A DNA stretch of 64,000 bases, taken from Octopus vulgaris (taxonomy: Eukaryota). A program made the position numbers and the translations under genes. Below, piece by piece: positions 3,681 to 50,024 of this stretch. The notes beneath the pieces are model-generated. The model was given only the letters and a program-made list of their open reading frames with translations. It had not been told where the DNA came from and ran no database searches. The stretch is from assembly GCA_951406725.2 (NCBI GenBank), contig OX597815.1, positions 66,712,001 through 66,776,000 of the forward strand. Direction: 5' to 3'. Numbering within the stretch: position 1 is the first letter of the stretch; every line of letters starts with the position of its first letter.

Positions 3681-3989
3681 TAACCATTTTTTATCTATAG
3701 ACACCTTTGATTACTATTTTATTCTGGTGGAACCCCATGACCATTCGATGTTTAAAACCTAGTTTCATAGAAATTTCTTTCAAAATTCCTATTTTATTTT
3801 TCTCACATTAACTTGTGTAGGTTGAATTATGTAAGATATTAGAAACCTAGCTGGTTTTTGCAATATATACATATAAAGCAAAAATTTTTCGGGTCCCCTA
3901 AAAATACTATTGTGAATCCCCAAATTATTATTTTGTTGCATGAACCTCCCAAAATCAGGGACCATATGGACCCCGGTTGAGAACCAGTG
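3681..3989 (-). mobile_element. hAT-like MITE (one terminus preserved)
   Basis: Minus-strand start CACTGGTTCTCAACC resembles Charlie-type hAT ends. Homologous to the split copy at 20580-20760 + 22337-22490. Confidence 0.55.
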
Positions 3990-4484: not shown

Positions 4485-4646
4485 GGTCGTGTTATTCTTT
4501 GCTCCGCAGTGAAAGATTGTTTTTGTGCAGAAAATTGTGAAAATTTGCTGTTTTGTTCGTCGAGACCACTTCTTTTCTGCTGTTGCAGCAGAGTTTTGCT
4601 GTTGTTTCCCCCTTGAAACAAGGGGGAAGCGACGAAAAACATCAAT

Positions 4647-5678
4647 TTGCCACCAATTTCTTCCGAGTCCGAGGAAAACTTTGAAAATTTGTTTGAAGGC
4701 ATAAAGGTGAATATGTGGGAGGAGAAAGGTAAAGGCATAGAGGCGTCTCACGCGCTTGTTACAAAAGCAAACGACAAGATGTCTTGCGAGGCTAAACAAG
4801 AGGAAAAATCAAAAATAAATTTTGCGAGTGCAGCAACTTGCCCCTGTGAAAATATAGTCATTAACAAGGAAGATTTAAAGAAATATCAAGGACTAATAAA
4901 AAAAGAAGGTGATAATGTGAAGTTTCTCCCTCCCAGTGAATTAATTTACGCGCCGGAGAGAAAAACTGTGATATACAAAACATATCATGTAAAAAATTAA
5001 AAAATCGACTTCGTACCGAGGGAAGCGATAGAAAAATGCTTGAGGCTGATATGGCAACAAACAAGCTACATAACGAGAGGTAGTCGCTTCGGCACTGTAG
5101 AGGTACATTTCCCTAGCGAAGAAAAAGCTAAGAAACATTCAACAATGACATTGAAGTCGGAGGAAGTAGTTCTCCTGCCGACTTACTTAGGAAAGAGAAC
5201 TTCAAAAGTCACAGTCACGGATATACCACCCGAAATAGATGTGGCCTGGGTGATAGCCGCTATTCTCATAGGCAAAGAAGAAGAAATTTCAATTCTTCAG
5301 TCTAAGAGATACCAGCACATGAACTGGGTTGGACAAGATTTAGACCTTGTCATCCAAGCAAACCCCTCAGACTTAGAAAAAATGCCCAGTTCCCTTACAA
5401 TTGGAGAAAATACCAGCCTGATGGTGGTAGTCGAGGAGAGAAAGCCCAGATGTTACAAATGTGGCGAGAAAGGCCACATAAGGTCGAGCTGTAAGAAGAA
5501 GACAGCCAAAGAAAACGCAGCAGAAGAGGCAAGCACGACGCCGAAGACAACGACCACACCGCTAGAAATAGCAGCCACGTCGCGCACACCATTTGCCGAA
5601 GTACAGCCGACAGCGGGAGAAAACAACAACAACAACGACAACAACAACAACAAGGAGTGGGTCACCGTGGAACCTTAA
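4647..5678 (+). pseudogene. Tx1-like ORF1 (gag-like, RRM-like region plus CCHC zinc knuckle), frameshifted near 5000
   Basis: ORFs 4647-5000 and 5040-5678. Motifs CYKCGEKGHIRSSC (CX2CX4HX4C), RFGTVEVHF and SKVTVTDIPPEI; a W-x-x-V motif near the end. Confidence 0.75.
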
Positions 5679-5824
5679 AAAAAAAAGACGGAAACGGAAA
5701 AAACCCACCCTCTTCGGATACACAGGACTATGCTCCGAGACAGACAAGCATACCCACACCCACAAATACAGTCGCAAACACACACGTAGCCAAAAAAACA
5801 CACACACTGGAAAAAGCACACACA

Positions 5825-6321
5825 TTTTAGCCTTTCAATTTTTTTTTATTAATTGTTAAATTAATTTAAGGATAACAATTAAGAAAAAAAACGAAAGACT
5901 AAAACGAAAGCAATGGAAAATAATCTTAATTTAACAATTAAGAAAAAAAAGACGAAAGGCTAAAACGAAAGCAAAAACTCAAAACAAAAGCAAAACCAAT
6001 AATTTTAGACACACGCGTAACAATTAAATTAATTTAACAATTAAGAAAAAAAAACGAAAGGCTAAAATTTAGGGTTAGGGTTAGGGTGAGGGTTAGGGTT
6101 AGTGACAGGATGTTGTCTGTTTTAGACGCAGCAATAGAGGCGATAGGATTGGTTAAAATTCGAAAAATTAAACTACGTTAAACTTACAAATTACAATTTT
6201 CTCAAGAAAGCCAAGAGAAAAAAATGTTTTATTTTGACACATTCTACCAGTATACGAAGTTTAAAAGTGTTTAGCTAACTAGAAATTGTGTTGAAAACTG
6301 CCGTTCAAAAGGAAAAGATCC
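5825..6321. mobile_element. Right half of GGATC-ended MITE carrying (TTAGGG)n
   Basis: Ends ...aactgccgttcaaaaggaaaagatcc, with a TTAGGG tract at 6069-6102. Nearly identical to 24297-24682. Confidence 0.75.
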
Positions 6322-16564: not shown

Positions 16565-17450
16565 GGATCTTTTCAATTCTGAAGCCAGGACCACAGATCT
16601 TTCTACTTAACTAAATATTCTGAAACTTCGTATGCTGATAGAGTCTAGCAAAACAAGACAGGTTGGAACTAGTTTATTTGAGAAAAATCTATTTTATGAT
16701 TTTAATCGTAGATTAAAACTGCGAATTTTAACCAATCAGATTGTTTGTTTTCATGTGTAAAACTTGACTGCATTCTATTAGTGTGACGTAGAAAGCGCTT
16801 TTGTGACGTACTAACGTTCGGAAAACTGTAAACAAACACAGAACGTAACGGCAGACGAAATACGGCTACGCATTTCGCCCGGCGTGCTAACGTTTCTGCC
16901 AGCTCTTTGCTTTTTTAATATTAAATTTCTTGCCTTTTGCACAAATAAATACAATAAGTGAAATGAAACGCATTAGCTTAGAAACGAAATCTTGTTAGAA
17001 GCCTCGTCACTGAGATGCCACTTCTTAATAGCAAACGAAAGCAAGTACTAACAGAATGGAAACATTTTCAATTTAATACATGTGGCTTATTAACTAGTTT
17101 TAAATATTGTTATTAGAAGGTGGCTGACTATAGGATCCTGGAAACATGAGTACGTTAAATAATTAGAAGGAGATTTCACGGAGACATGCGGCTTGTTTAC
17201 ATTTAAGATGTTTAATACGTCACCAAATTGGTGGTCGAGACGGAGTAAATAAAATAAAGCCGAATGACGGAATATCATTGGTTAAAATTCTAATTATTAA
17301 ACAACGTTAAACTTAGAAGTTACAATTCCGTTTTCATTCTGGTTTACAATTAAGTTTACTTTTGACACATTCTACCAGTATACGAAGTTTCAAATTGTTT
17401 GGTTCAGTAGGAAAAATTTGAAAAAACTGGCTTCAGAATTGAAAAGATCC
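16565..17450. mobile_element. GGATC-ended MITE with 8-bp TSD, no telomere tract; SINE fragment inside
   Basis: TIR ggatcttttcaattctgaagccag / ctggcttcagaattgaaaagatcc. TSD caaccttt at 16557-16564 and 17451-17458. Confidence 0.85.
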
Positions 17451-17700: not shown

Positions 17701-20245
17701 TTATGGCTGCCCCCTCGTTAACGAGTAATGGCCATTGCACGAAGCTTAACTGTTACTGGTGCTGTGATCGAATGTGACTTTTTAGCCCAGCTAAAGATCT
17801 ACAATGTATCGTACAGAATTGGCAACTAAAACCTTTACCGGAAATAGCCGGCTGTAGCTGTAACTGGGTTTCATGTACCTTTGCATGTCGTTTAAGTCCT
17901 CCTGCCAAATTACACTCTCTTCCACATGCCCGACAGATATGATTAGTAGTATGGTGTGTTACACCACCACCAGTGGCCAGGTTGTCATCTGTCTCGCTTT
18001 ATGACTACGAAGATGACTCTTGCGTCTAGCTTTACTGAGGCAGGGTCTTGCACAGACACTGCATGTCAGCATCTTAGGAAGACCCTTCCCATCTGGAAGT
18101 GTAACAGCGATGCCCTTCCTGACATCCCTCCTTACTTTCTCATGTGCAACTCGAGATTTCTCAAAAGTGGCTGTCCCCTCGTTCACAATCCTTCTCCACC
18201 TGCTACGATCAATAGCTATGCCTTCCCATGTGTCAGGAGAGATGCAAGCATCTCTTAATGAAGCCTTCAGCAAGTCCTTATACCTCTTTTTTGGTTTATG
18301 TGGAGGTCGTTCTCCTTTAGCTAACTCTCCATAAAAGAGTTGTTTTGGCATCCTTGAATCCTTCATCCTGACCAGATGACCACTCCATCTGAGCCTTTGC
18401 TTTAACACAAGAGCTTCTATACTTTCATACCGAGAGCCTTCCAATATTTCAAGATCACTGATGCGGTCCTTCCACTTAATGCCATAGATCCGTCTGAGAC
18501 ACATCTGATGGAAACGTTCCAGTTGTTTAAGGTGGTATCGATATGTGACCCACGTCTCGCAGGCATAGAGAAGAGAAGGGATCACACATGCCTTGTACAC
18601 CTCTGTCTTTGTCTTTCTGCATATGTCTCGTCGACTCCAGAGGCGCTTTTCTATCCTTCCGAAAGCAACACTTGCTTTCCTAATTCTATATGGAATTTCA
18701 TCATCCAAATTGCTATATCTATTAATAGTACTTCCCAGGTAGACAAACTGATCAACTACATCAAGTCGTTTAGCATACACATCGATATTTGGTACACTAT
18801 ACTGCTTACCAGGGGCTGGTTGATGCATGACAACAGTTTTCTTGAGATTGACCGTCAATCCTAAGGCAGTGCAAGCATCAGAGAATGCATTCAAAATGTG
18901 TTGCATATCAATCTCTGTGTGTGCTGCTAGCTCACAATCATCTGCATACAAAAGGTCTCTTATAATAGAGGTAAATAACTTTGTTTTTGCAGCAAAGTGC
19001 CTGATATTAAATATGCTGCCAGAGGTTCGATAATGGATATAAACACCGTATCTGCAGTTTTTGAATGCAATACAGAACACCATCGCAAAATATATGGAAA
19101 ATAGGGTCGGTGCCAGAATATCCCCCTGTTTCACTCCATTTTGTATTGAAATGGGCTCCGACATTTTCCCTCTAACATTCACCCTACCATTCATGTTTTC
19201 ATGAAAAGACCTAAGCAAAGCAAGGAACTTTTCAGGACACCCAATTTTCTGGAGGACTTTCCACAATGCTTTTCTATTGACGGTATCAAAGGCTTTTGTC
19301 AGATCGACAAAAACCTGATACAAATCCAGACCCTGTTCCACACACTTCTCCTGAAGCTGTCTAGCTGAAAAGATCATATCAGCAGTGCCACATCCCACAC
19401 GAAAGTCAGATTGACTTTCTGGAAGAACACAAACTGCAACGTACTTCAGCAGACGATCCAGAAGTACCCTGCATAAAACCTTTCCTACGACAGACAGTAA
19501 TGATACTCCCCTATAATTACCACAATCATTCCTGTTGTCCTTTCCCTTATACAGGACCACTATTACTGTATCTCTCCAGTCCTCAGGTACAGATTCACTA
19601 GTCTATATCTTACCAAACAAAGAGTGAAGTTTCTGCAGAAGTTTCTCACCACATGCTGTAACTACTCCGCATGTATGCCATCCATACCCGGAGATTTCCC
19701 ATTATTCAACTTTGAGACAGCCATCGCAACTTCTTCCAACTTTGGTGGTTCTGCGATTTCTGCCTTCACAGGTAATCCAGGGATGAGATTGAGAACATCC
19801 TCACTGACTACAGACTGCTGATTCAAAAGTTCATCAAAGTGTTCTTGCCACCTTCGCAGAATTCCTTGTGAAACACGAAGAAGTTCTTTACTATGCCTGC
19901 TCCGAAGTGGTGTCATCAGGGAAGACGTCGGTCCATAAACTCTTCGCAAGAGACCATACAACAGCTTTGTGTTATTGGAATCTGATGCCGCCTGTATCTC
20001 ATCAGCCTTCTTACTCCACCACGTATCCCTCATCTGAGAGAGCCTTTGTCTCACACGTGATTTTACGTCCTTGAGTTCCCTATGCAACACTTCCCTTTCC
20101 TGTAGCTTTGCTGACAAATAGCGTGACAAAGTACGTCTTTTATCAGCCAATAAATCATCTATATGTTCATCATTTTCTTTAAACCAATCTTGATGCTTTC
20201 TTTGTATCAATCCCAGAACTTTCTTGCCTATATCATAAACTGACT
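17701..20245 (-). mobile_element. 5'-truncated RTE-clade LINE
   Basis: RT ORFs plus a short 3'UTR ending in a (TA)/(CA) microsatellite. The endonuclease domain is missing. Confidence 0.92.
17753..20210 (-). pseudogene. RTE reverse transcriptase ORF (two frameshifts) with three C-terminal C2H2 zinc fingers
   Basis: Motifs NYRGVSLLS, FVDLTKAFDTV, GVKQGDILAPTLF, LLYADD, YLGS, LRWSGHLVRM. Fingers CSVC..HLRSH, CRAC..HAKVH and CQFC..HIRSQH; the last two come from manual translation of 17753-17950. Confidence 0.9.
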
Positions 20246-20765
20246 TGTGATCAATAATGCATCATCCATGACCACCACATCTCATTTGTCACTATAGGTC
20301 AAGGATACCATCATCCAAACGGTATTTTATTTTAGATAGTAATTTGAAGGAGATATTGCTGCTAATTTTAGGTCAAGCAAAGCAGCGAGTTGGCGGAACC
20401 GTAAGCACGCCAGACAAAATGCTTTGCCGCATTTCTTCTGACAATACATTCTGAGTTCAAATTCCGCGGAGATTGAAAATAAGTACCAGTTGAGTGTTTG
20501 CTCCTCCCGCTCGTCGAAAGTTCAAATTTTGTGCCTGTAGTAGAAAGAAAAAAATCTTTAGTAGAACCATCGACGGCGTCGCAGTCTCAACCGTTTTTTA
20601 GCTATGGACCCCTTTGATTGCTATTCTATTCTGATGGTCCAACAGTCATTCGGTGATTAAAAACTAGTTTCATAGATACTTTTTTCAAAATTCCTATTTT
20701 GTTCATCACACATTCTCATGTGTAGTTTCAACTATGTAAAAGGTTAGAAAAAGAAATTGAGCTGT

Positions 20766-21365
20766 GTATATTTCGTTTGTCACTGTTATTTATAACATAT
20801 TTCATCTAAGTTACGGTTGTATGAATAAATGAGTGTATCTGAAGCATGTTTACTTCATGGCACCACCATAATCGTTTGTGCTTCATTTTAAATTTTTTTC
20901 CGTAACTCTAACCCTAAAACGCCAACCCTAACCGTAACTCTAACCCTAATCCTAAAATCCTAACCCTAACTCTAAAACCCTAACCCTAGCTCTGACCCTA
21001 AAACCCTAGCCCTAACCCTAAAACCCTAACCGTAAAACCGTAAAACCCTAAAGCTAGAACCAGTACAAACGCACGAACAATGTCATAAATAACAGTGACA
21101 AATGAAATATACACCGCCGATAGTTGTTGTTGACAAACAACGGCAGTAATTTTATTCAGCTGTAATTTTATATACGTCATTGATTGGTTGAAATTACCGA
21201 AATGCGAAAATTTTAACAAGAAATAACTTCCAAACTACAGAATTTTCTCAACAACGCCAAGAGTAAAATATGTTTTATGTGACACTTTCTACCAGTATAC
21301 GAAGTTTGAAAGTGTTTAGTCACAAAAAATTATTTTTTAATCTGTAGGTCAAAAGGTAAAGATCC
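20766..21365. mobile_element. GGATC MITE (left TIR deleted) with degenerate CCCTAA array
   Basis: Ends aaggtaaagatcc, with CCCTAA/ACCGTAA variants at ~20904-21052. The core is the reverse complement of the 30698-31598 core. Confidence 0.8.
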
Positions 21366-21375
21366 GAGCTGTTTC

Positions 21376-22336
21376 GGATCTTTTCGCTTTGACCGGCAGA
21401 TTTTAAAAATAATTTCTTTGTAACTAAACATTCTGTAGTTTGTAAGCTATTTATTTGCTGTTTAATTTCTTGCATTTCGGCAATTTCAACCAATCAATGA
21501 CAACTATTGAGGTGAATACAGTCTCTCCGGATCTTTGCCAACAACAATTATTTGCGGTGTCATATGAATTTGTCACTGTTATTTATGACATATTTCATAT
21601 CAGTTACGTTCGTATGAATAAAAGATTATCGTTATTAAACTTTTATTAATAAACACATATTCTGAGTTCACAACATATGCAGTTTTAATTTCCCTCTCTG
21701 TTGCACAGATACTCACATTACATATATATTCGTTTAAGAAACAGATTGGGTTTATTTACATTTCTGAAGAAAAAAAAGATACCTTCCCCCCACCCCTAAC
21801 CCTAACCCTAACCCTAACCCTAACCCTAACCCTAACCCAACCCTAACCCTAACTCTAACCCTAACCCTAACCCTAACTCTAACCTTAACTCTAACCATAA
21901 CCATAACCCTAACCCAACCCTAACCCTAACCCAGATTGAAATGCAATAGATCGATATTAGGGTCATAATTATTGGTGGACACTAAAGAGGGAACGGTTTT
22001 GTTATCCAGCTCTGTTTACGAGTGACCCCTCAGTTTATGGTCACAGGGTATCTTTTTTCTTATAAATAACAGTGACAAATTCATATGACACCGCAAATAA
22101 TTGTTGTTGACAAAGATCCAGAGAGATTGTATTCACCTCAATAGACGTCATTGATTGGTTGAAATTGCCGAAATGCAAGAAATTAAACAACAAATAGCTT
22201 ACAAACTACAGAATTTTCTCAAGAAAGCCAAGAGAAAAATATTTTTTATAAACACATTCTACCAGTATACGAAGTTTAAAAGTGTTTAGTTACAAAGAAA
22301 TTATTTTAAAATCTGCCGGTCAAAGCGAAAAGATCC
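21376..22336. mobile_element. Complete GGATC MITE with long TIRs, 8-bp TSD and internal (CCCTAA)n
   Basis: TIR ggatcttttcgctttgaccggcagattttaaaa (arms over 200 bp). TSD gctgtttc at 21368-21375 and 22337-22344. Telomere tract at 21794-21932. Confidence 0.9.
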
Positions 22337-23774
22337 GCTGTTTCTTGCAAAAAATACGTCTAAAGCAAAACTTTTTCATGGACTCTTAAAATACTACCAT
22401 GGATCTCCAATTTACCATTTTGCTTGCATGGACATCAAAAATCTTACATTAGATCCCTAGGGGTCATATGAACCCCGATTGAGGACCTACTAATGCATGT
22501 TTCAAGTGAAATTCGCTCAGCAACATATGTAGAGAAGTAGCTAATTTATTTTGTCAACACTCTCTTTCCTTCGATATCTATAGTTCAGATAACGAATACA
22601 AATGGCTAGAGTCTATCATGCTGTTTACATTATACATTTAAAAGTCAAACCATATTTGTTTCATGTAGATTACATTTCACCTCATGTATATAAATAGAAA
22701 TAAACAATTAATTTTATCTGTCACATCATCACCTTGAACCAGTCCTTGAAATATTTCGATCAGTTTCAACTAAAGTCTTCAGTTTTGTTAAATCTATTTG
22801 TTTTATTTATCATATCCAGGTCACAACGTTATCACTTTCCGTTACTATTTTTATAAATTAAATTTTTTTACTGTACTCTATAAATCTTTCGTAAATTTTC
22901 GAGATCCCACGATCTAGCATTTATCTGTTATATTAAAGTGCTTGCGATAAAATCCTGTAGTGTAAACAATCTGTCCTACTGGGAAAAAGGAGTGGTAAAA
23001 GTATATGTGCAGGAGAGAAAGAGATTCAAACGAACATTACTAGCACGTGCACACATGCACATACTTCAACCCCCCCACACACACACACGACAATTATCTG
23101 TGTATGCATGTGTGTGTGTTTTTGTAAAGGAGAGAGTGGGTGATATGAGCATATGTGCACACGCCATTAGCGTTCGTACGTGTGGAAACAAAAATATCGT
23201 TTATTCTTAAGCTACAAATAAGTAAAATATTCCATTTCGATAGTTTAAATCATTTATTAAATCTATATTCGATTGACGGAGTGGGGTGCAAAATTGGTAA
23301 CTGGGGCAAAATGAGCAATTTCTGATTTCTTATTATTTCTTCCCTACTACCTGTTATGTTGCAGAATTTGCATCATCATGTTGCATTGTGGCACCACCTT
23401 TGGGAGTAAACACTTTTCAGCATAGTTGCTTTTGTTGGAGTTGTGAGAATTAGATACGTTTTTTCAAGAAATTTTTCCTCATCTTTGACCCGTTTGTATA
23501 ATAATTGAAGTTGCTAATGAAATATCTGGATAATTTTTGATGTTTTACAATCAATATTCTTTTCTCTGTTGGATTCCAAGTCAATTTTTCCCGCATTAAT
23601 GTCTAATTTGATAATTTCCAGTTCTCAAAAAATTATGTCTAAACTGGGGCAAAATGAGTAATGACTAATTTCAACAATTTCTTCATGATATGCGAATATA
23701 TCATAAGGAGAATTACTCCAGCAGACCGTGAAGAAGCTATAGAGAATATTTTATGTTGAGTTTTTTTATAAATA

Positions 23775-24275
23775 CCGTAAATCCTCGAGTATAATCCGCA
23801 TTTTTTCCCAAAATTTAAAGGTCAAAATCCCTAGTGCGTACTATATACGAGGTTAAAAATGAAAAATATTTTCTAAGCAATGTCCGAGTCTCTGTTTGCT
23901 GTCCGACAATGCTTATTCAGACGCATTTTGTGATCTCGGGCGCGAAAATACCTTAAGCTAAGCCTGAAAGCAATGAAGTCATAAAAGAATCATCTATAAC
24001 TTGCAGTAAGCAACATTTATGAAAATAAAAGTATTCAGAACATGTAACAAAACAATTTGCAAACATATTTACATTCCCATATAACAGTTAAGAACATCAC
24101 TATTATTGTATTACGCATGCACGGAAGTGTTTGTTCGACTAGGTGCTACTGGCTTAATTACGTACGACTCAAGTTAGAGAAGGGGTGCGTATTATACACA
24201 AGGTTTAGGTTTCTCAGAAGTACAGCACCCTAAAAATCCCCTGCGTATTATACTCAAGGGCAGACTATACTCGAG
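23775..24275. mobile_element. pogo/Tigger-like MITE, right end truncated
   Basis: TA + ccgtaaatcctcgagtata; same family as 48111-48622. Confidence 0.8.
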
Positions 24276-24296
24276 TATCTCGAGTATACACGAGTA

Positions 24297-24682
24297 TCTC
24301 AAAACAAAAACTCGAAACAAAAACAAAACGAATAATTTTAGACACACGCGTAACAATTAAATTAATTTAACAATTAAGAAAAAAAAACGAAAGGCTAAAA
24401 TTTAAGGTTAGGGTTAGGGTTAGTGTTAGGGTTAGGGTTAGGGTTAGTGACAGGATGTTGTCTCAGTTTTAAACGCAGCAAATGATTTTAGCTCAATAGA
24501 GGCCATTGATTGGTTAAAATTCGAAAAATTAAACTACGTTAAACTTACAAATTACAATTTTCTCAAGAAAGCCAAGTGAAAAAAATGTTTTATTTTGACA
24601 CATTCTACAAGTATACGAAGTTTAAAAGAGTTTAGTTAAGTAGAAATTGTGTTGAAAACTGCCGTTCAAAAGGAAAAGATCC
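24297..24682. mobile_element. Right half of GGATC MITE with (TTAGGG)n
   Basis: TTAGGG tract at ~24402-24447; ends ggaaaagatcc. Confidence 0.8.
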
Positions 24683-28727: not shown

Positions 28728-29080
28728 ATAAAACGGTAAGATAACAAAAGAAAGAAAGAGACCTCAATATTATGTAAATAGAGGAAATTTATCTATACAA
28801 TATGTTACATTACTCGGTAGTCAAGATAAAACTCTGAGTTTCAGATGCCGAAGTGGAAATCCACAACACCATCTCTTCGGTTATCTGGCTATTTGAAAAC
28901 GTTATGAAAAAATACCGTTAAAAATGAAGGGAAATTACTCTGTTATAACTCTGCTTTGCCTGCGTACTTATACATCGCTCGCATTTTTCGTCATAAAAAT
29001 TATATAAAAATACATAAAAATATATAAAAATATATAAAAATATATAAAATCTTCTTGGGACATAACACAGAAAGCATGTT

Positions 29081-29699
29081 CTATCCGTTTTCTTTAGGGG
29101 ACCAAAAACGTAACAGAAATTTAGTCACATGTGGGCATGATCCGAAAAGCTCTGTCCTTGTATTTAGACATGTGGTAGGGTCTAAGCTGCTTTTCCAGAT
29201 AAGCCATCTCTCCATGTCGCATAAACCGCACCTTCCGCTGCCGTTAGTGTAGGGCTTACATCTGGCCAAAATCTTCCATTGTATGTTATAATCGACACCT
29301 TTATCTCTTAAAGACCAAATATGATTGGATAATTGTGTCGCTTTTCTTTTGTTCCAGTGCCTAAAGCTCAAAGTGTGGTTATTGAACCTGGCCTTGAAAT
29401 TACCCTCTGTCAGGCCCACGTATTTCTTCGTCGAAACGGTGTCTTTAGTGGTTATAGAGTTTACGGTAGCTTCATATATGATGGTCTTGGACATGCAAGC
29501 TCCATTTAGCGGGCACAATTCTTTATTCCTGCATGAACAGCTGTTTTCTTCTTGTGTTTTTTGTATGTTATGATTGATTATGTTTTTAAAATTGGTAGTT
29601 GAACTAAAACTAATTTTTAAATTGTGTCTATTGAAGAGTTTCCTATAAGCATGGTTAACTGGAAAATGTCTATCTATCAGTGCTAGGAAATATTTACCT
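29081..29699 (-). pseudogene. Mirror copy of the PLE linker + GIY-YIG endonuclease
   Basis: Identical 145-aa ORF at 29081-29518; the frame stays open to the palindrome centre. Confidence 0.85.
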
Positions 29700-29701
29700 T
29701 C

Positions 29702-30325
29702 AATATAGGTAAATATTTCCTAGCACTGATAGATAGACATTTTCCAGTTAACCATGCTTATAGGAAACTCTTCAATAGACACAATTTAAAAATTAGTTTT
29801 AGTTCAACTACCAATTTTAAAAACATAATCAATCATAACATACAAAAAACACAAGAAGAAAACAGCTGTTCATGCAGGAATAAAGAATTGTGCCCGCTAA
29901 ATGGAGCTTGCATGTCCAAGACCATCATATATGAAGCTACCGTAAACTCTATAACCACTAAAGACACCGTTTCGACGAAGAAATACGTGGGCCTGACAGA
30001 GGGTAATTTCAAGGCCAGGTTCAATAACCACACTTTGAGCTTTAGGCACTGGAACAAAAGAAAAGCGACACAATTATCCAATCATATTTGGTCTTTAAGA
30101 GATAAAGGTGTCGATTATAACATACAATGGAAGATTTTGGCCAGATGTAAGCCCTACACTAACGGCAGCGGAAGGTGCGGTTTATGCGACATGGAGAGAT
30201 GGCTTATCTGGAAAAGCAGCTTAGACCCTACCACATGTCTAAATACAAGGACAGAGCTTTTCGGATCATGCCCACATGTGACTAAATTTCTGTTACGTTT
30301 TTGGTCCCCTAAAGAAAACGGATAG
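29702..30325 (+). pseudogene. PLE linker + GIY-YIG endonuclease (Naiad-like), 5'-truncated but uninterrupted
   Basis: Open frame NIGKYFLALIDRHFP...CSCRNKELCPLNGAC..IIYEATV..KYVGLTEGNFKARFNNH..CGLCDME..LNTRTE..CPH. No RT core and no start codon. Confidence 0.85.
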
Positions 30326-30519
30326 AACATGCTTTCTGTGTTATGTCCCAAGAAGATTTTATATATTTTTATATATTTTTATATATTTTTATGTATTTTT
30401 ATATAATTTTTATGACGAAAAATGCGAGCGATGTATAAGTACGCAGGCAAAGCAGAGTTATAACAGAGTAATTTCCCTTCATTTTTAACGGTATTTTTTC
30501 ATAACGTTTTCAAATAGCC

Positions 30520-30582
30520 AGATAACCGAAGAGATGGTGTTGTGGATTTCCACTTCGGCATCTGAAACTCAGAGTTTTATCT
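30520..30582 (+). ncRNA. Minimal type I hammerhead ribozyme variant (mirror copy 28824-28886 on minus)
   Basis: Stem I agataa/ttatct; core CCGAAGA (U4C); stem II gatg..gtgga/tccac..catc plus an extra U; GAAA; palindromic stem III actc-a-gagt; UH = UU. Confidence 0.6.
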
Positions 30583-30611
30583 TGACTACCGAGTAATGTA
30601 ACATATTGTAT

Positions 30612-30657
<46 letters not shown>

Positions 30658-30697: not shown

Positions 30698-31598
30698 GGA
30701 TCTTTACCTTTTGACCTACAGATTTTAAAAAATAATTTTCTGTAACTAAACACTTTCAAACTTCGTATACTTGTAGAATGTGTCATATAAAAACATCTTT
30801 TACTCTTGCCGTTATTGAGAAAATTCTGCATTTTGGAAGTTATTTATATTTCGTTTGTCACTGTTATTTAGACATCGTTCGTGCGTTTGTAGTGGTCTTA
30901 GCTTTAAGGTTTTAAGGTTATGGTTTTACGGTTTTATGGTTAGGGTTAGGGCTAGGGTTTTAGGGTTAGAGTTACGGTTAGGGTTTTAGAGTTAGAGCTA
31001 GGGTTAAGGTTTTAGGGTTAGGGTTAAGGTTTGGGGGTTATGGTTGGGGTTTTAGGGTTAGAGTCACGGAACAAATGAAAAATGAAGCACGAACGATTAT
31101 GGTGGTGCCATGAAGTAAACATGCTTCAGATACACTCGTTTATTCATACAAACGTAAATGAAATGAAATATGTCATAAATAACAGTGACAAACGAAATAT
31201 ACACCGCCAGAAGTTGTTGACAAACAACAGCAGTAATTTTATTCAGCTAAATACACGTCATTGATTGGTTGAAATTACCGAAATACGGCAACTTTAACAA
31301 AAAATAACTTCCAAAATACAGAATTTTCTCAACATGTTTTATGCGACACATTCTACCAGTATACGAAGTTTGAAAGTGTTTAGTTACAAAAAAATATTTT
31401 TTAAATCTAATTCTTTTACTACCCACAAGGGGCTAAACACAGAGAAGACAAACAAGGACTGACAGACGGATTAAGTCGATTATATCGAACCCAATGCGTA
31501 ACTGGTACTTAATTTATCGACCCCGAAAGGATGATAGACAAAGTCGACCTCGGCGGAATTTGAAGTCAGAAAATCTGTCAATCAGAAGGTAAAGATCC
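30698..31598. mobile_element. GGATC MITE with degenerate TTAGGG array; SINE fragment inserted in right TIR
   Basis: ggatctttacctt ... aaggtaaagatcc. TTAGGG variants at ~30901-31066. The SINE at ~31410-31570 is flanked by an aaatct duplication. Confidence 0.85.
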
Positions 31599-32495: not shown

Positions 32496-33809
32496 AAAAA
32501 GTAAAAGAAAGTTGTTACAAATTTCTCCTTTGTAAAGAGGGGGAAAATATGGACCAAAATAGAGAAACTTATTTTCATACTATAGTATATAAAATTATAA
32601 ACAATAGATTTTTTAATCGACAATAGAAGGAAATTATTTTAATATGACTCAGAGACTAAATTATTTCCTACCACCACCACTACCATCATCAAAATCACAT
32701 GGATTTTGGGGTTTGATTTTTATGACTGGTTTTCTTAACATTTAAGAGGTATGTTAACGATGTAATATCCTCATCCCACGCCATGATAGACAACTGTCGA
32801 AACACTCGTCATTTCCTTATCGTTTCCTATTTACAACGGTAATATCTACTGAAAAGTGGAGCCTCTAGTAATAACAACCAAATCTCCCTCACATCACACC
32901 TGTCCTTTTTAAATGCAGGATATACTGGGTAATGTACTTCAAGATATACCACTAAAAAGGTGGGATGGTCACAGTTGGAATACCTTTGATCTGTACAATA
33001 AGGGCTGATCTGGGACTAAACCATGCCCGTCACTAAGAGGATACACTGGATGACACTGTTCGTTCGCTATTCAACAGTGCACCATCAGATTACAGTGGTA
33101 CACTTATTTCGAAACTTCGCTTTAGCATTATTATAAATTTGTGCCTACTCAGAGTATTCTGAAGCACCCCAAGGCACTATAGTCTGGTAACAGGCCGGAC
33201 TAAACAACAACTTCGAGCTTAAGAGACTCAATTACATTCCTGCTGTTGTTGCTGTTGTTGGAGCCCTGTTTTTATAGATACGCCTTACCTCCTGGACTAC
33301 ATTATCCAATGTATCTTGTTTTTAAAGAGATCATATGATTTAAAGAGGATTTGGTTGTTATTTCTCGCGAGTCGAACGATCACGCCATGTAGTTATCAGC
33401 TTGGACATCAAGGTTATCAAAGTAGCAAGAGTATAAAAGGTTATTAAGATTAATTAATAAACTGGTTTAATTAATTAATAATCTACACATAATCTTTAGT
33501 TTATTAAACTCCACAAAATCAAATAGTCTTTGTATGACTGAAGGGGCAGCGGAGGGGGAGAGAGAAATTGAAGCAAAGGTCATTATTGTGTTAAATATAT
33601 TCATAAATATAGATTTGTAGAATTACAAAAAGTCCTCAAATATGTAAAGATAACAAGAGAAATAATCAATTGAATAAGTTCAGCATATTATTATTGGTAC
33701 TTTATTTTATTGATTTCACTGGGATAAAAGCAAAGTTGATGCAGCAAAATCGAAACCTAGAATATAAAGGAACGTAATTTAATATAGCAAGGAACTCTCA
33801 CCGTTTCTT

Positions 33810-34730
33810 CATTACTCTACCAATTCTACCACCCACTATTATTCTCCCCACCACTCTACCAATTCTACTACCTACTACCATTCACCTACGATTCAACCAA
33901 TTCTATCAACGACTACCATTTCCCCCTCAGCATTCTACCAATTTTAACATTCACCACCATTCTCCCAACATTCTACTAATACTACTACCCACAACCATTT
34001 CCCCACCACCCAGCCGATTAAACCACCTACTGTCATTTCCCCACTATCACTTCTATCGTTAACAACTATACACCCATCACCACTCTACCAATTCAGTCAT
34101 CCACTACAATTCCCACACCATTCTACCCATTCTACAAATTCTACAGCACACTACCATTCAACAACATTCTATCTCATTCTACCATTCCTTCTCACCACTC
34201 TATCAATTCTACTATCAACTACCATTATTCTCCACCACCACCTTACCAATTCTACCATCAACTACAGTTCTTCCACCATTATACCAATTCCACCATATAC
34301 TACCTTCCTCCACTAGTCTACCAAACCTATCAATTCTACCATCCACTACCTTTTCTCCTTACCATTCTACCAATTTTACCCCAACATCATTTGCCCCAAT
34401 ACCCACATTTCTCCACCACCCTACCGATTCTACCACCTACTACTATTTCTCCAACAATCAATTCTACCATTGACTACAACTTCCCAATCATCATTCTACC
34501 AATTCTACCATCAACTACCGTTCACTCTCCAGTCGACCAATTCTACCATCGACTACCATTCTACCAATTCTACCATTCCTCCACCATGTTACCAATTTTA
34601 CCGCCCACTACCATCTAATATTTCTATCAAATCTACCACCCACTGCCATTCACTCTACATTCTACCAGTTCTACCATCCACTGTCACTCTCTCATGCTAC
34701 CTGTTCCACCTTCCTCAACCATTTTCTACT
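33810..34730. repeat. Degenerate C/A/T-rich minisatellite built on ctaccaattctacca
   Basis: Motif recurs throughout; the plus strand is almost G-free. Confidence 0.85.
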
Positions 34731-47362: not shown

Positions 47363-48110
47363 TAATGATGCATTTTCGTAAAATTTCTCTCGACATTTCT
47401 TATTTAAAAGAAGTAATGACACAAAAGAATGAATGACTTTATGTTTGTAGAAACAAGAAATTTTTATGATTATACTTTTTAATTTTATTTTAGAAATGTC
47501 CATGATGATAGAGTGGATAAGTTATCAACGATTCTATGAAGGGGTCAATGACAGGAAGGGCTTACCCATCTCTCGTTTACAGGGCCTTCGAGATGGTGGG
47601 TTAGAGGAGGGTATTCTTAAACTTGAAACAATGTCAGGTCTGAAAAGATAAAAAACAAAGTTGACCTTGGTAGGATTTGAACTCAGAACGCAGATTATCA
47701 GAATAAATACTGCGAAGTATTCTATCCAACTGTCTAATGTCTCTGCCAAGAATTGAAGTTGGGTTGTCGTCTGCCAGCTGGAAACACAACCTGTAATATA
47801 TATAGAACGGCATTTTGTCTTATAGTATATTTATATTTCATGCTCTGAACTCAATGAAAACTCAAGATAAACGTCGTCAAATGGGCATTTATGGGAAATC
47901 TTTCATCAAAAGCCTATGACGTCATGAATGAGTGTGTGATATTGCCTTTCAACTACTTACTCATCGGATTTGAGCACTCAAACACACACTTGCAGACATA
48001 CTCACTCTGACTAACGTCATGTACTAATGCTGAAACATTGCTTATTGTTGTAATTTAAAATAGAGACAGAATTATCAGAACAATATCACAGGCAGTACGG
48101 CACCGAACTA

Positions 48111-48622
48111 CTGTAAATCCTCGAGTATAATCCGCATTTTCCCCCCAAAATTTAAAGGTCAAAATCCCTAGTGCGTACTATATACGAGGTTAAAAATGAA
48201 AATTATTTTCTAAGCAATGTCCGAGTCTCTGTTTGCTGTCCGGCAATGTTTATTTATACGCATTTTGTGATGTCGGGCGCGAAAATACCTCAAGCTAAGC
48301 CTGAAAGCAATGAAGTCATAAAAGAATCATCCATAACTTGCAATAAGCAACATTTATTAAACGTTATTACTGTTATTTCTTTATTTTCTGCAAATAAAAT
48401 GCACAAAAAAGCTACGCGTTTGCATTATGTTATATATACAATAATAATAAAGGACGTTACCGTATACATTTTTACAAACCAAAAGCATTATATAGACCTC
48501 CTTGACTCAAGTTAGAGAAGGGTTGCGTATTATACACAAGGTTTATGTTTTTCAGAGGTACAGTCCCCTAAAAATTCCCTGCGTATTATACTCCAGGGTG
48601 GACTATACTCGAGGATTTACGG
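48111..48622. mobile_element. Complete pogo/Tigger-like MITE
   Basis: TIR c(t/c)gtaaatcctcgagtata / tatactcgaggatttacgg with TA on both sides. Confidence 0.85.
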
Positions 48623-49531: not shown

Positions 49532-50024
49532 TATTAGAAAGAATGAGATAACAAAGCGAAGGCTGTGAGAAGTTTTCAGGACATTTATAATGAAATAGTC
49601 TTACAGCTGTTTCAGGGATATTATGGACATCCCTTCATCAGAGAAGTCGTGAGAGAATATTTGAGTTCGAATTACTATGGAAAATGAGGAGATAGGGAAT
49701 ATAGAGGGAAATAAGAGAATGAAAGTAGATATAAATTATATAAAGATATTGCAGTTCCATTGTTCGAGGAAAATCCTAATTCTACACACCATTTTACTCA
49801 AACAATGGAACTGAAACTACAATATCTTCATATATCTTATTTCTACTTTCATTCTCTTATTTTCCTCTATATTCCCTATCTCCTCATTTTCCATAATAAT
49901 GTGAACTCAAATATTTTCTCACACCATCTCTGATGAAGGGATATCCCAGCTGTAAGACAATTTCATTATAAATGTCCTGAAAACTCCTCACAGCCTTGGC
50001 TTTGTTATCTCATTCACTCTAATA
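49532..50024. repeat. ~240-bp-arm inverted repeat (head-to-head PLE-type ends) in TA/TG microsatellite
   Basis: Arms 49532-49774 and 49791-50024, 16-nt spacer, moderately diverged. Confidence 0.85.
49597..49645 (-). ncRNA. Canonical minimal type I hammerhead ribozyme motif
   Basis: tct-CTGATGA-agggat..atccct-GAAA-cagctg-TA-aga. The mirror copy (~49927-49959) has lost GAAA by deletion. Confidence 0.75.

Follow-up and report, generated by a model that had tools for sequence, protein, structure and literature searches.

A non-autonomous DNA-transposon family in Octopus vulgaris carries internal, degenerate TTAGGG tracts

How does a telomere motif come to recur, cluster after cluster, within a single stretch of octopus DNA? 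TTAGGG is the telomere motif reported for an octopod in the accessible parts of PMC13218726 and PMC6160780 (citing Adachi 2014), and in the stretch analysed here, taken at its full 64 kb and called the window below, all five clusters of at least two TTAGGG/CCCTAA hexamers lie within one group of related elements, E1–E6: 42 hexamers in the 4.2 kb of the elements (6.6% of the window) versus 24 in the other 59.8 kb, or 9.9 per kb versus 0.40 per kb. The answer that we favour, and consider quite probable, is that these are gene-less copies of a cut-and-paste transposon, likely Merlin, with a degenerate TTAGGG tract between or beside their terminal inverted repeats (TIRs) that is inherited and likely deposited with each insertion.

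With a profile of the TIR arm, ten sites in the window matched strongly (E ≤ 2.4e-12), every one of them belonging to E1–E6, and four matched more weakly; of these four, the decayed outer end of E6 accounts for one and noise for three. The six related elements of the preliminary description were thus recovered. The 8-mer GGATCTTT begins all nine surviving termini, each of which has 5′-GG, and occurs twice more inside the arms of E4. The TIRs are imperfect and about 200–270 bp long, the most conserved block being at about bases 50–90; a 24-base block that had been given as common to all six is exact in four, and is one base off in E3 and E5. One end is gone in half of the elements (E1, E3, and E5). 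No stop-free frame of at least 100 aa lies within any of the six, a frame of this class at 5495–5830 overlapping the edge of E1 by 7 bases. The span first singled out, 21368–22344, is E4 together with its two 8-bp target-site duplications (TSDs).

Table 1. Positions in the window of the elements, their tracts, and the older repeat that received two of them.
Feature	Position	Strand	Details
E1, subfamily C, right end only	5824..6321	.	A/T-rich repeated interior 5824–6068, tract 6069–6102, TIR 6103–6321
E2, subfamily D, complete, tract-less	16565..17450	.	TSD caaccttt
Older repeat that received E3 and E4	20589..22443	+	uninterrupted paralog 3682–3956
E3, subfamily B, inverse to E6	20766..21365	.	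left TIR mostly deleted
E3 degenerate TTAGGG/TTTTAGGG tract	20900..21052	-	10 perfect hexamers
Left TSD of E4, gctgtttc	21368..21375	+	8/8
E4, complete, subfamily A	21376..22336	.	left arm 21376–~21590, right arm ~22062–22336
E4 TTAGGG-like tract	21794..21932	-	15 perfect units, longest run 7
E4 100-bp segment absent from most related copies	21972..22071	.	contig joints and depth
Right TSD of E4	22337..22344	+	flank comparison
E5, subfamily C, right end only	24301..24682	.	A-rich interior 24301–24401, tract 24402–24447, TIR 24448–24682
E6, subfamily B, both ends kept	30698..31598	.	TIR profile
E6 degenerate tract	30902..31066	+	7 perfect hexamers

Two of the three two-ended elements, E2 and E4, are flanked by exact duplications of 8 bp, the very two (caaccttt and gctgtttc) that had been proposed. 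By chance, an exact 8-mer would arise at about 2.5e-5 per element, and at E4, where 8/8 bases agree, no match was found at the other lengths from 4 to 12. The third, E6, has flanks that match in only 3/8 positions and no clear duplication; a match of 8/12 at one of the nine lengths tried there was rejected as a duplication. The flanks of E3, GAGCTGT (20759–20765) on the broken side and GAGCTGTT (21366–21373) on the intact side, keep 7/8 bases; the deletion probably clipped what was a third 8-bp duplication.

E3 and E4, of different subfamilies, stand 2 bp apart in one older repeat, which we take to resemble a hAT-like MITE. The uninterrupted paralog of this repeat is 79% and 76% identical to its two halves, and in run X14, from a related organism with about 94% identity in the flank, 44 contigs span the uninterrupted junction at 22337, where a loose end also runs on into the left half of the older repeat. 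Because the empty form exists, both as the paralog and in the X14 contigs, E3 and E4 must have been inserted. Within 20759–21375, E3 went in first, and E4 then landed in the target duplication of E3; their adjacency hints at a preferred target or at local re-insertion. Taken together, TIRs, a TSD with an empty site, non-coding interiors, and abundance (see below) are what is expected of a MITE-like, non-autonomous TIR DNA transposon, and E1–E6 are a family of such elements.

Individual copies carry their own damage. The left arm of E4 has a 70-bp deletion peculiar to this copy, its arms being 98% identical over the aligned positions, and contig joints in runs X1 and X4 skip 98–100 bases at the segment that most related copies do not have, with a depth about 20-fold lower in the bin 22017–22099. 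The right TIR of E6 is split by a dispersed repeat at 31409–31570 with a 6-bp direct repeat on either side. The arm of E5 is 96% identical to that of E1. In E1, the 46 bases beside the tract (6024–6068) recur inverted, at 93% identity, in the interior at 5824–5869, and this copy ends exactly where a second, head-to-head tract would start; subfamily C may thus be a symmetric fold-back with two tracts.

All five tracts noted previously are present in their places, in five of the six elements, and are internal, 200–420 bp from the element ends. Their earlier label, “TTAGGG arrays,” stands as to presence, but has to be softened as to form: perfect units make up 25–62% of a tract (25–38% in subfamily B) and the longest perfect runs are of 2–7 units. 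TTAGGG is nevertheless the commonest unit in every one of the five, among mixed units of 5, 6, and 8 bases; in E4 the variant units are TTAGAG, TTATGG, TTAAGG, and TTGGG. E2 has no telomere-like remnant, 299 and 291 of 300 shuffles scoring as high. All 34 YTAGGGTTR sites of the window, a motif that we take to be the TRF half-site, sit in the five tracts, with 3–14 in each, and the strict G-quadruplex pattern occurs in four tracts and the relaxed one in all five, as pattern matches alone. The shelterin/TRF sites or G-quadruplexes suggested for this DNA may therefore be treated as candidate motifs, predicted from the letters.

It is conceivable that such a tract is an ordinary G/T-rich microsatellite, grown by slippage within the element and like a telomere repeat by resemblance alone. 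The window is rich in microsatellites (141 rows), the tracts mix unit lengths, and MITEs carrying microsatellites are known from the accessible parts of PMC6947457 and PMC3879986. Against this, the unit that prevails in all five tracts is the reported octopod telomere motif, and no TTAGGG cluster lies outside the elements in the window; we consider a chance likeness improbable.

The clearest evidence on how the tracts spread comes from E3 and E6. The order of variant units is common to these two (score 170 versus 117 ± 11 after shuffling of units, with 0/1000 shuffles as high), and their spacers align on each side of the tract (0/300 shuffles per side). Since E3 and E6, which lie at different sites, share both unit order and spacers, the tract moves with the element and is not added site by site. 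Repair of a break would give a one-step insertion at a unique locus, independent of its neighbours, and the common order and spacers of E3 and E6 do not have that form.

Arm identities and a small tree (nine arms, arbitrary root) divide the elements into four subfamilies: A (E4), B (E3, E6), C (E1, E5), and D (E2). Arms of A and B are about 86% identical (70–75% for the deleted left arm of E6), those of C are 76–83% identical to A and B, and those of D 56–72% to the others, the TIRs of E2 being the most divergent of the six. In C the tract abuts the inner end of the TIR; in A and B it occupies the loop that separates the arms. A, B, and C each hold it in unrelated spacer DNA, all six comparisons between them being at the level of shuffled sequence, which bears out the view that it occurs in at least three internal contexts.

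The tract may have been gained once or several times. One possibility, to which we give a minority share of our belief, is that each subfamily acquired its tract separately: a fold-back loop breaks, telomerase patches the break, and a master copy is amplified. Short interstitial telomeric sequences have been explained in print by insertion in one step at breaks (PMC8537989, in its accessible part), the tracts of A and B do sit in the loop, the spacers on either side show no relationship across subfamilies, and these have no unit order in common, 365 and 515 of 1000 whole-unit shuffles of A versus B reaching the observed scores. (A first test, in which 1 and 8 of 1000 shuffles did so, had split the TTAGAG units, and the shared A/B order that it suggested was discarded when it vanished with whole units.) Separate gains sit less well with the polarity of the G-rich strand, which A and B have in common when it is read against a 57-bp block present on one side only, and with the three single-change variants of A, all of which are also present in B (p ≈ 0.025 under a crude uniform model). 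Furthermore, the arms of tract-less E2, the most divergent element, split from all tract-bearing arms at 97/97 (nine arms, arbitrary root), which fits a single gain. These points lean toward one gain, and the unrelated spacers allow for several.

The stretch is present, whole or in part, in 20 runs. Depth was measured on 21934–24401, with the tract itself outside, and summed contig depth is not the same as copy number. In runs X1 and X4, the summed depth on the TIR was 1.0–3.0 million versus 56–61 on the single-copy flank, that is, 16,000–53,000 times the flank, to be read as an order of magnitude inflated by overlapping short contigs; the tract-adjacent DNA of E4 and E5 reached 0.32–0.91 million, or 5,700–16,000 times the flank. 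These depths point to a copy number of thousands or more, and we infer that other genomic copies hold the tract too. In X14 the TIR is likewise abundant, but at 85% likeness no depth falls on either tract-adjacent interior, contigs being unable to prove absence; the pattern fits younger subfamilies. A raw-read run, X21, gave 11 matching reads out of 12.9 million, too few to inform. The earlier proposal that the family disperses its tract is upheld by the common unit order of E3 and E6 and by the highly repeated tract-adjacent interiors in two runs, and transposition is likely to scatter telomere-like sites inside chromosomes.

As to the superfamily, the assignment draws on the ends alone, and on these Merlin is our preferred, somewhat probable, candidate. 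hAT, P, and Novosib elements have 8-bp duplications and short TIRs that start with CA or TA; the termini here start with GG and the TIRs exceed 200 bp, so none of these was retained. Zisupton elements also have an 8-bp duplication, with a transposase of their own. Zisupton has been reported in cephalopods in the accessible part of PMC10294476, according to which Merlin, among the molluscs analysed, is almost confined to cephalopods. O. bimaculoides has 191 Merlin proteins. In the accessible text of PMC8101967, Merlin is defined by 5′-GG, TIRs of 24–462 bp, and duplications of 8–9 bp, all of which agree with E1–E6, and the likeness in these features extends to Merlin derivatives (Feschotte 2004, as summarised there). 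Merlin proper differs in carrying a transposase, of the DDE_Tnp_IS1595 type, and the octopus elements are known without a linked one. The preliminary preference for Merlin weighed it against hAT and P alone, but Mutator fits the same ends, with long TIRs and duplications of 8–11 bp, and Merlin is not established by them.

E1–E6 could then be derivatives of Mutator-like elements (MULEs) with a captured tract, structure and inheritance being the same and the superfamily alone differing, which we think doubtful; that they are neither Merlin nor Mutator seems less probable still. MULEs commonly have TIRs of hundreds of bases and 8–11-bp duplications, as in the invertebrate Spectre with 8 bp (PMC6446971, accessible part), the arms here are long and imperfect with swapped interiors, and in the available part of PMC13282606 the share of the O. 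vulgaris assembly taken up by Mutator is six times that of Merlin. In that curated annotation Merlin accounts for 2.2 Mb, Mutator for 13.9 Mb, and unclassified TIR elements for 12.4 Mb, and a family of such abundance may exceed the annotated Merlin total. Both exact duplications here are of 8 bp, however, and most of the animal rows seen in Table 1 of PMC6446971 give 9 bp or 8–10 bp; in addition, the sole transposase-linked TTAGGG precedent seen is a Merlin, from Ptychodera flava (discussed next). Mutator-like Spectre, Phantom, and Rehavkus resemble the octopus family in long TIRs, 8–11-bp duplications, and, in some, minisatellites, but duplications of 9 bp prevail in most of the animal groups listed and telomeric repeats are unmentioned in the accessible text of PMC6446971. 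Exact-pattern scans with the conserved TIR block gave no matches in metagenome contigs, viral contigs, or prokaryote genomes.

The Repbase Merlins frequently contain tandem repeats, which these transposons may spread (Lopes et al. 2021, PMC8101967, S1 Table, accessible part); the same table gives Merlin-1_Aplcal a period-6 array of 39.5 copies, the unit not being given. The accessible text of PMC8101967 has no match to “telomer,” and its Repbase Merlin list, as available, shows no octopus family. Its S2 Appendix, as far as accessible, covers the Merlin of Ptychodera flava, an acorn worm; in six of seven distinct ORF-bearing records a TTAGGG doublet precedes the transposase by about 500 bp, with the same context at all 30 places listed, some 300–350 bases (by eye) inside a GG-starting terminus. 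The doublet, at a fixed place in dozens of copies, goes unremarked by the authors in that part of the paper. The two families are alike in the GG start and in a TTAGGG-type tract, including the TTTTAGGG unit, at a fixed internal place; the Ptychodera element is unlike in having about 2.5 units, transposase-bearing copies, and unrelated terminal sequence.

This parallel bears on the idea that the tract has been kept as helpful, binding a TRF-like Myb or other TTAGGG binder or forming a G-quadruplex and so aiding expression, end pairing, or escape from silencing. Three subfamilies with TIRs 14–24% apart retain it despite the turnover of their spacers, the half-sites and G-quadruplex patterns counted above would provide for such contacts, and in the accessible Ptychodera records an unrelated Merlin has, at a constant place between the ORF and the element end, a TTAGGG doublet. 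Yet few units remain perfect in subfamily B, the tract-less E2 did transpose, leaving an exact duplication, and slippage alone keeps a microsatellite recognisable. We therefore hold a selected role to be rather unlikely. Similarly improbable, in our estimate, is its widest form: that Merlin-type transposons of several phyla repeatedly kept the host telomere motif as a protein-recruiting module, the octopus family being the main maker of interstitial sites, with thousands to tens of thousands of shelterin-type sites.

We return to a tract that most likely rides as a passenger without selected function. A transposase acting in trans would bind the conserved TIR block and insert the element with an 8-bp stagger, and repair of the donor gap would both raise copy number and delete or swap interior DNA, giving subfamilies A–D. 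A master element would have acquired the tract on one or a few occasions, the simplest route being the patching of a broken fold-back loop with telomere repeats, and slippage and point mutation would have let it drift since. The tract-less E2, the lack of a clear duplication at E6, and the lack of any transposase tied to these TIRs count against this reading.

The window holds several other repeats, described here for their own sake. The ORF1/gag-like gene at 4617–5678 (+) is interrupted by stops, encodes a CCHC knuckle (PF00098), has a homolog in O. bimaculoides, and leads with hardly a gap into the interior of E1; a deletion probably joined the two and also took the left arm of E1. A telomere-targeting retroelement inserted in the tract was considered for this gene and set aside, there being no TIR upstream and no second ORF after it. 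For a neighbouring protein, the sole named homolog comes from Octopus bimaculoides, with 45% identity across 36% of the query, and mollusc clusters are among the matches of two atlas look-ups. A reverse-transcriptase gene at 17959–20261 (−), in two frames of 547 and 199 residues (PF00078), is presumably of the RTE type of LINE. A small repeat is present in two copies, 23770–24290 and 48106–48616, which are 90–94% identical and very abundant in X1 and X4; the copy abutting E5 may have truncated it. Between two (TA)n runs lies an inverted duplication, 28787–29699 / 29707–30619, of 913 bp with one mismatch and a 7-base loop, whose 212-residue frame has look-alikes including GIY-YIG (23% of one cluster) and HTH_animal clusters. 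Its layout suggests, as the probable source, a recent retroelement of the Penelope-like kind with an inverted end, although it may be a long-read fold-back artefact. Additionally, 33800–34720 holds a C/A-rich minisatellite, degenerate and 900 bp long, in which ATTCTACC-like units recur with periods of 8–47, and 49532–50024 is a self-complementary fold-back MITE-like repeat of about 490 bp, 82% identical to its own reverse complement. The commonest short repeat of the window we take to be an octopus SINE.

DNA transposons carrying a host telomere repeat do exist in ciliates, where TBE1–3 have it at their very ends; the octopus tracts are internal, and the family is not of that kind. Closer are the repeat-carrying MITEs, namely Donax DTC84/pearl-like elements (PMC3879986) and the GTCY MITEs of insects and Xstir of Xenopus (PMC6947457), in which, from the accessible parts of these papers, a non-autonomous cassette likewise spreads an internal repeat with an ordered variant array. 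DTC84 is unlike in its short inverted repeats, its AA duplication, and a repeat that is not described as telomeric in the available text of PMC3879986; with long TIRs, an 8-bp duplication, and a unit that is the host telomere motif, the octopus elements are not members of that group. Vertebrate short interstitial telomeric sequences (ITSs) resemble the tracts as short internal arrays of exact or near-exact TTAGGG but arise singly at repaired breaks, and transposons are concluded not to have spread the TERC-ITSs (PMC8537989, accessible part).

In the literature searched (full text, few subscription papers, Repbase and Dfam being outside its scope), no report of a cephalopod TIR family that carries TTAGGG was found. 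Telomeric cargo has no match in the accessible part of the PMC13282606 supplement and no mention in the corresponding text, and a search for the motif in 12 of the 33 supplementary files that accompany PMC10294476 was negative. It is possible that the family is catalogued already. MITEs with internal repeats and Merlins with tandem repeats are known, as is, in the accessible Ptychodera records, a TTAGGG doublet, and this makes the novelty lower than the preliminary description implied.

What the family means for octopus genomes can be set out in turn. With thousands of such tracts, telomere estimates from reads could come out too high, FISH signals could blur, and the calling of chromosome ends by TTAGGG could go astray; a TTAGGG setting for chromosome ends appears in the accessible account of a cuttlefish assembly. 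A transposon that multiplies TTAGGG is a second route to internal telomere sequence, beside the one-off insertion at breaks known in vertebrates (PMC8537989, accessible part), and can be counted in existing octopus assemblies. If the tracts do not bind telomere proteins, the family is a modest variation on repeat-carrying MITEs. If they do bind TRF-like proteins, they would form a large natural series for the study of internal telomere sites, and a functional role through telomere-binding proteins, if true, would be the important result.
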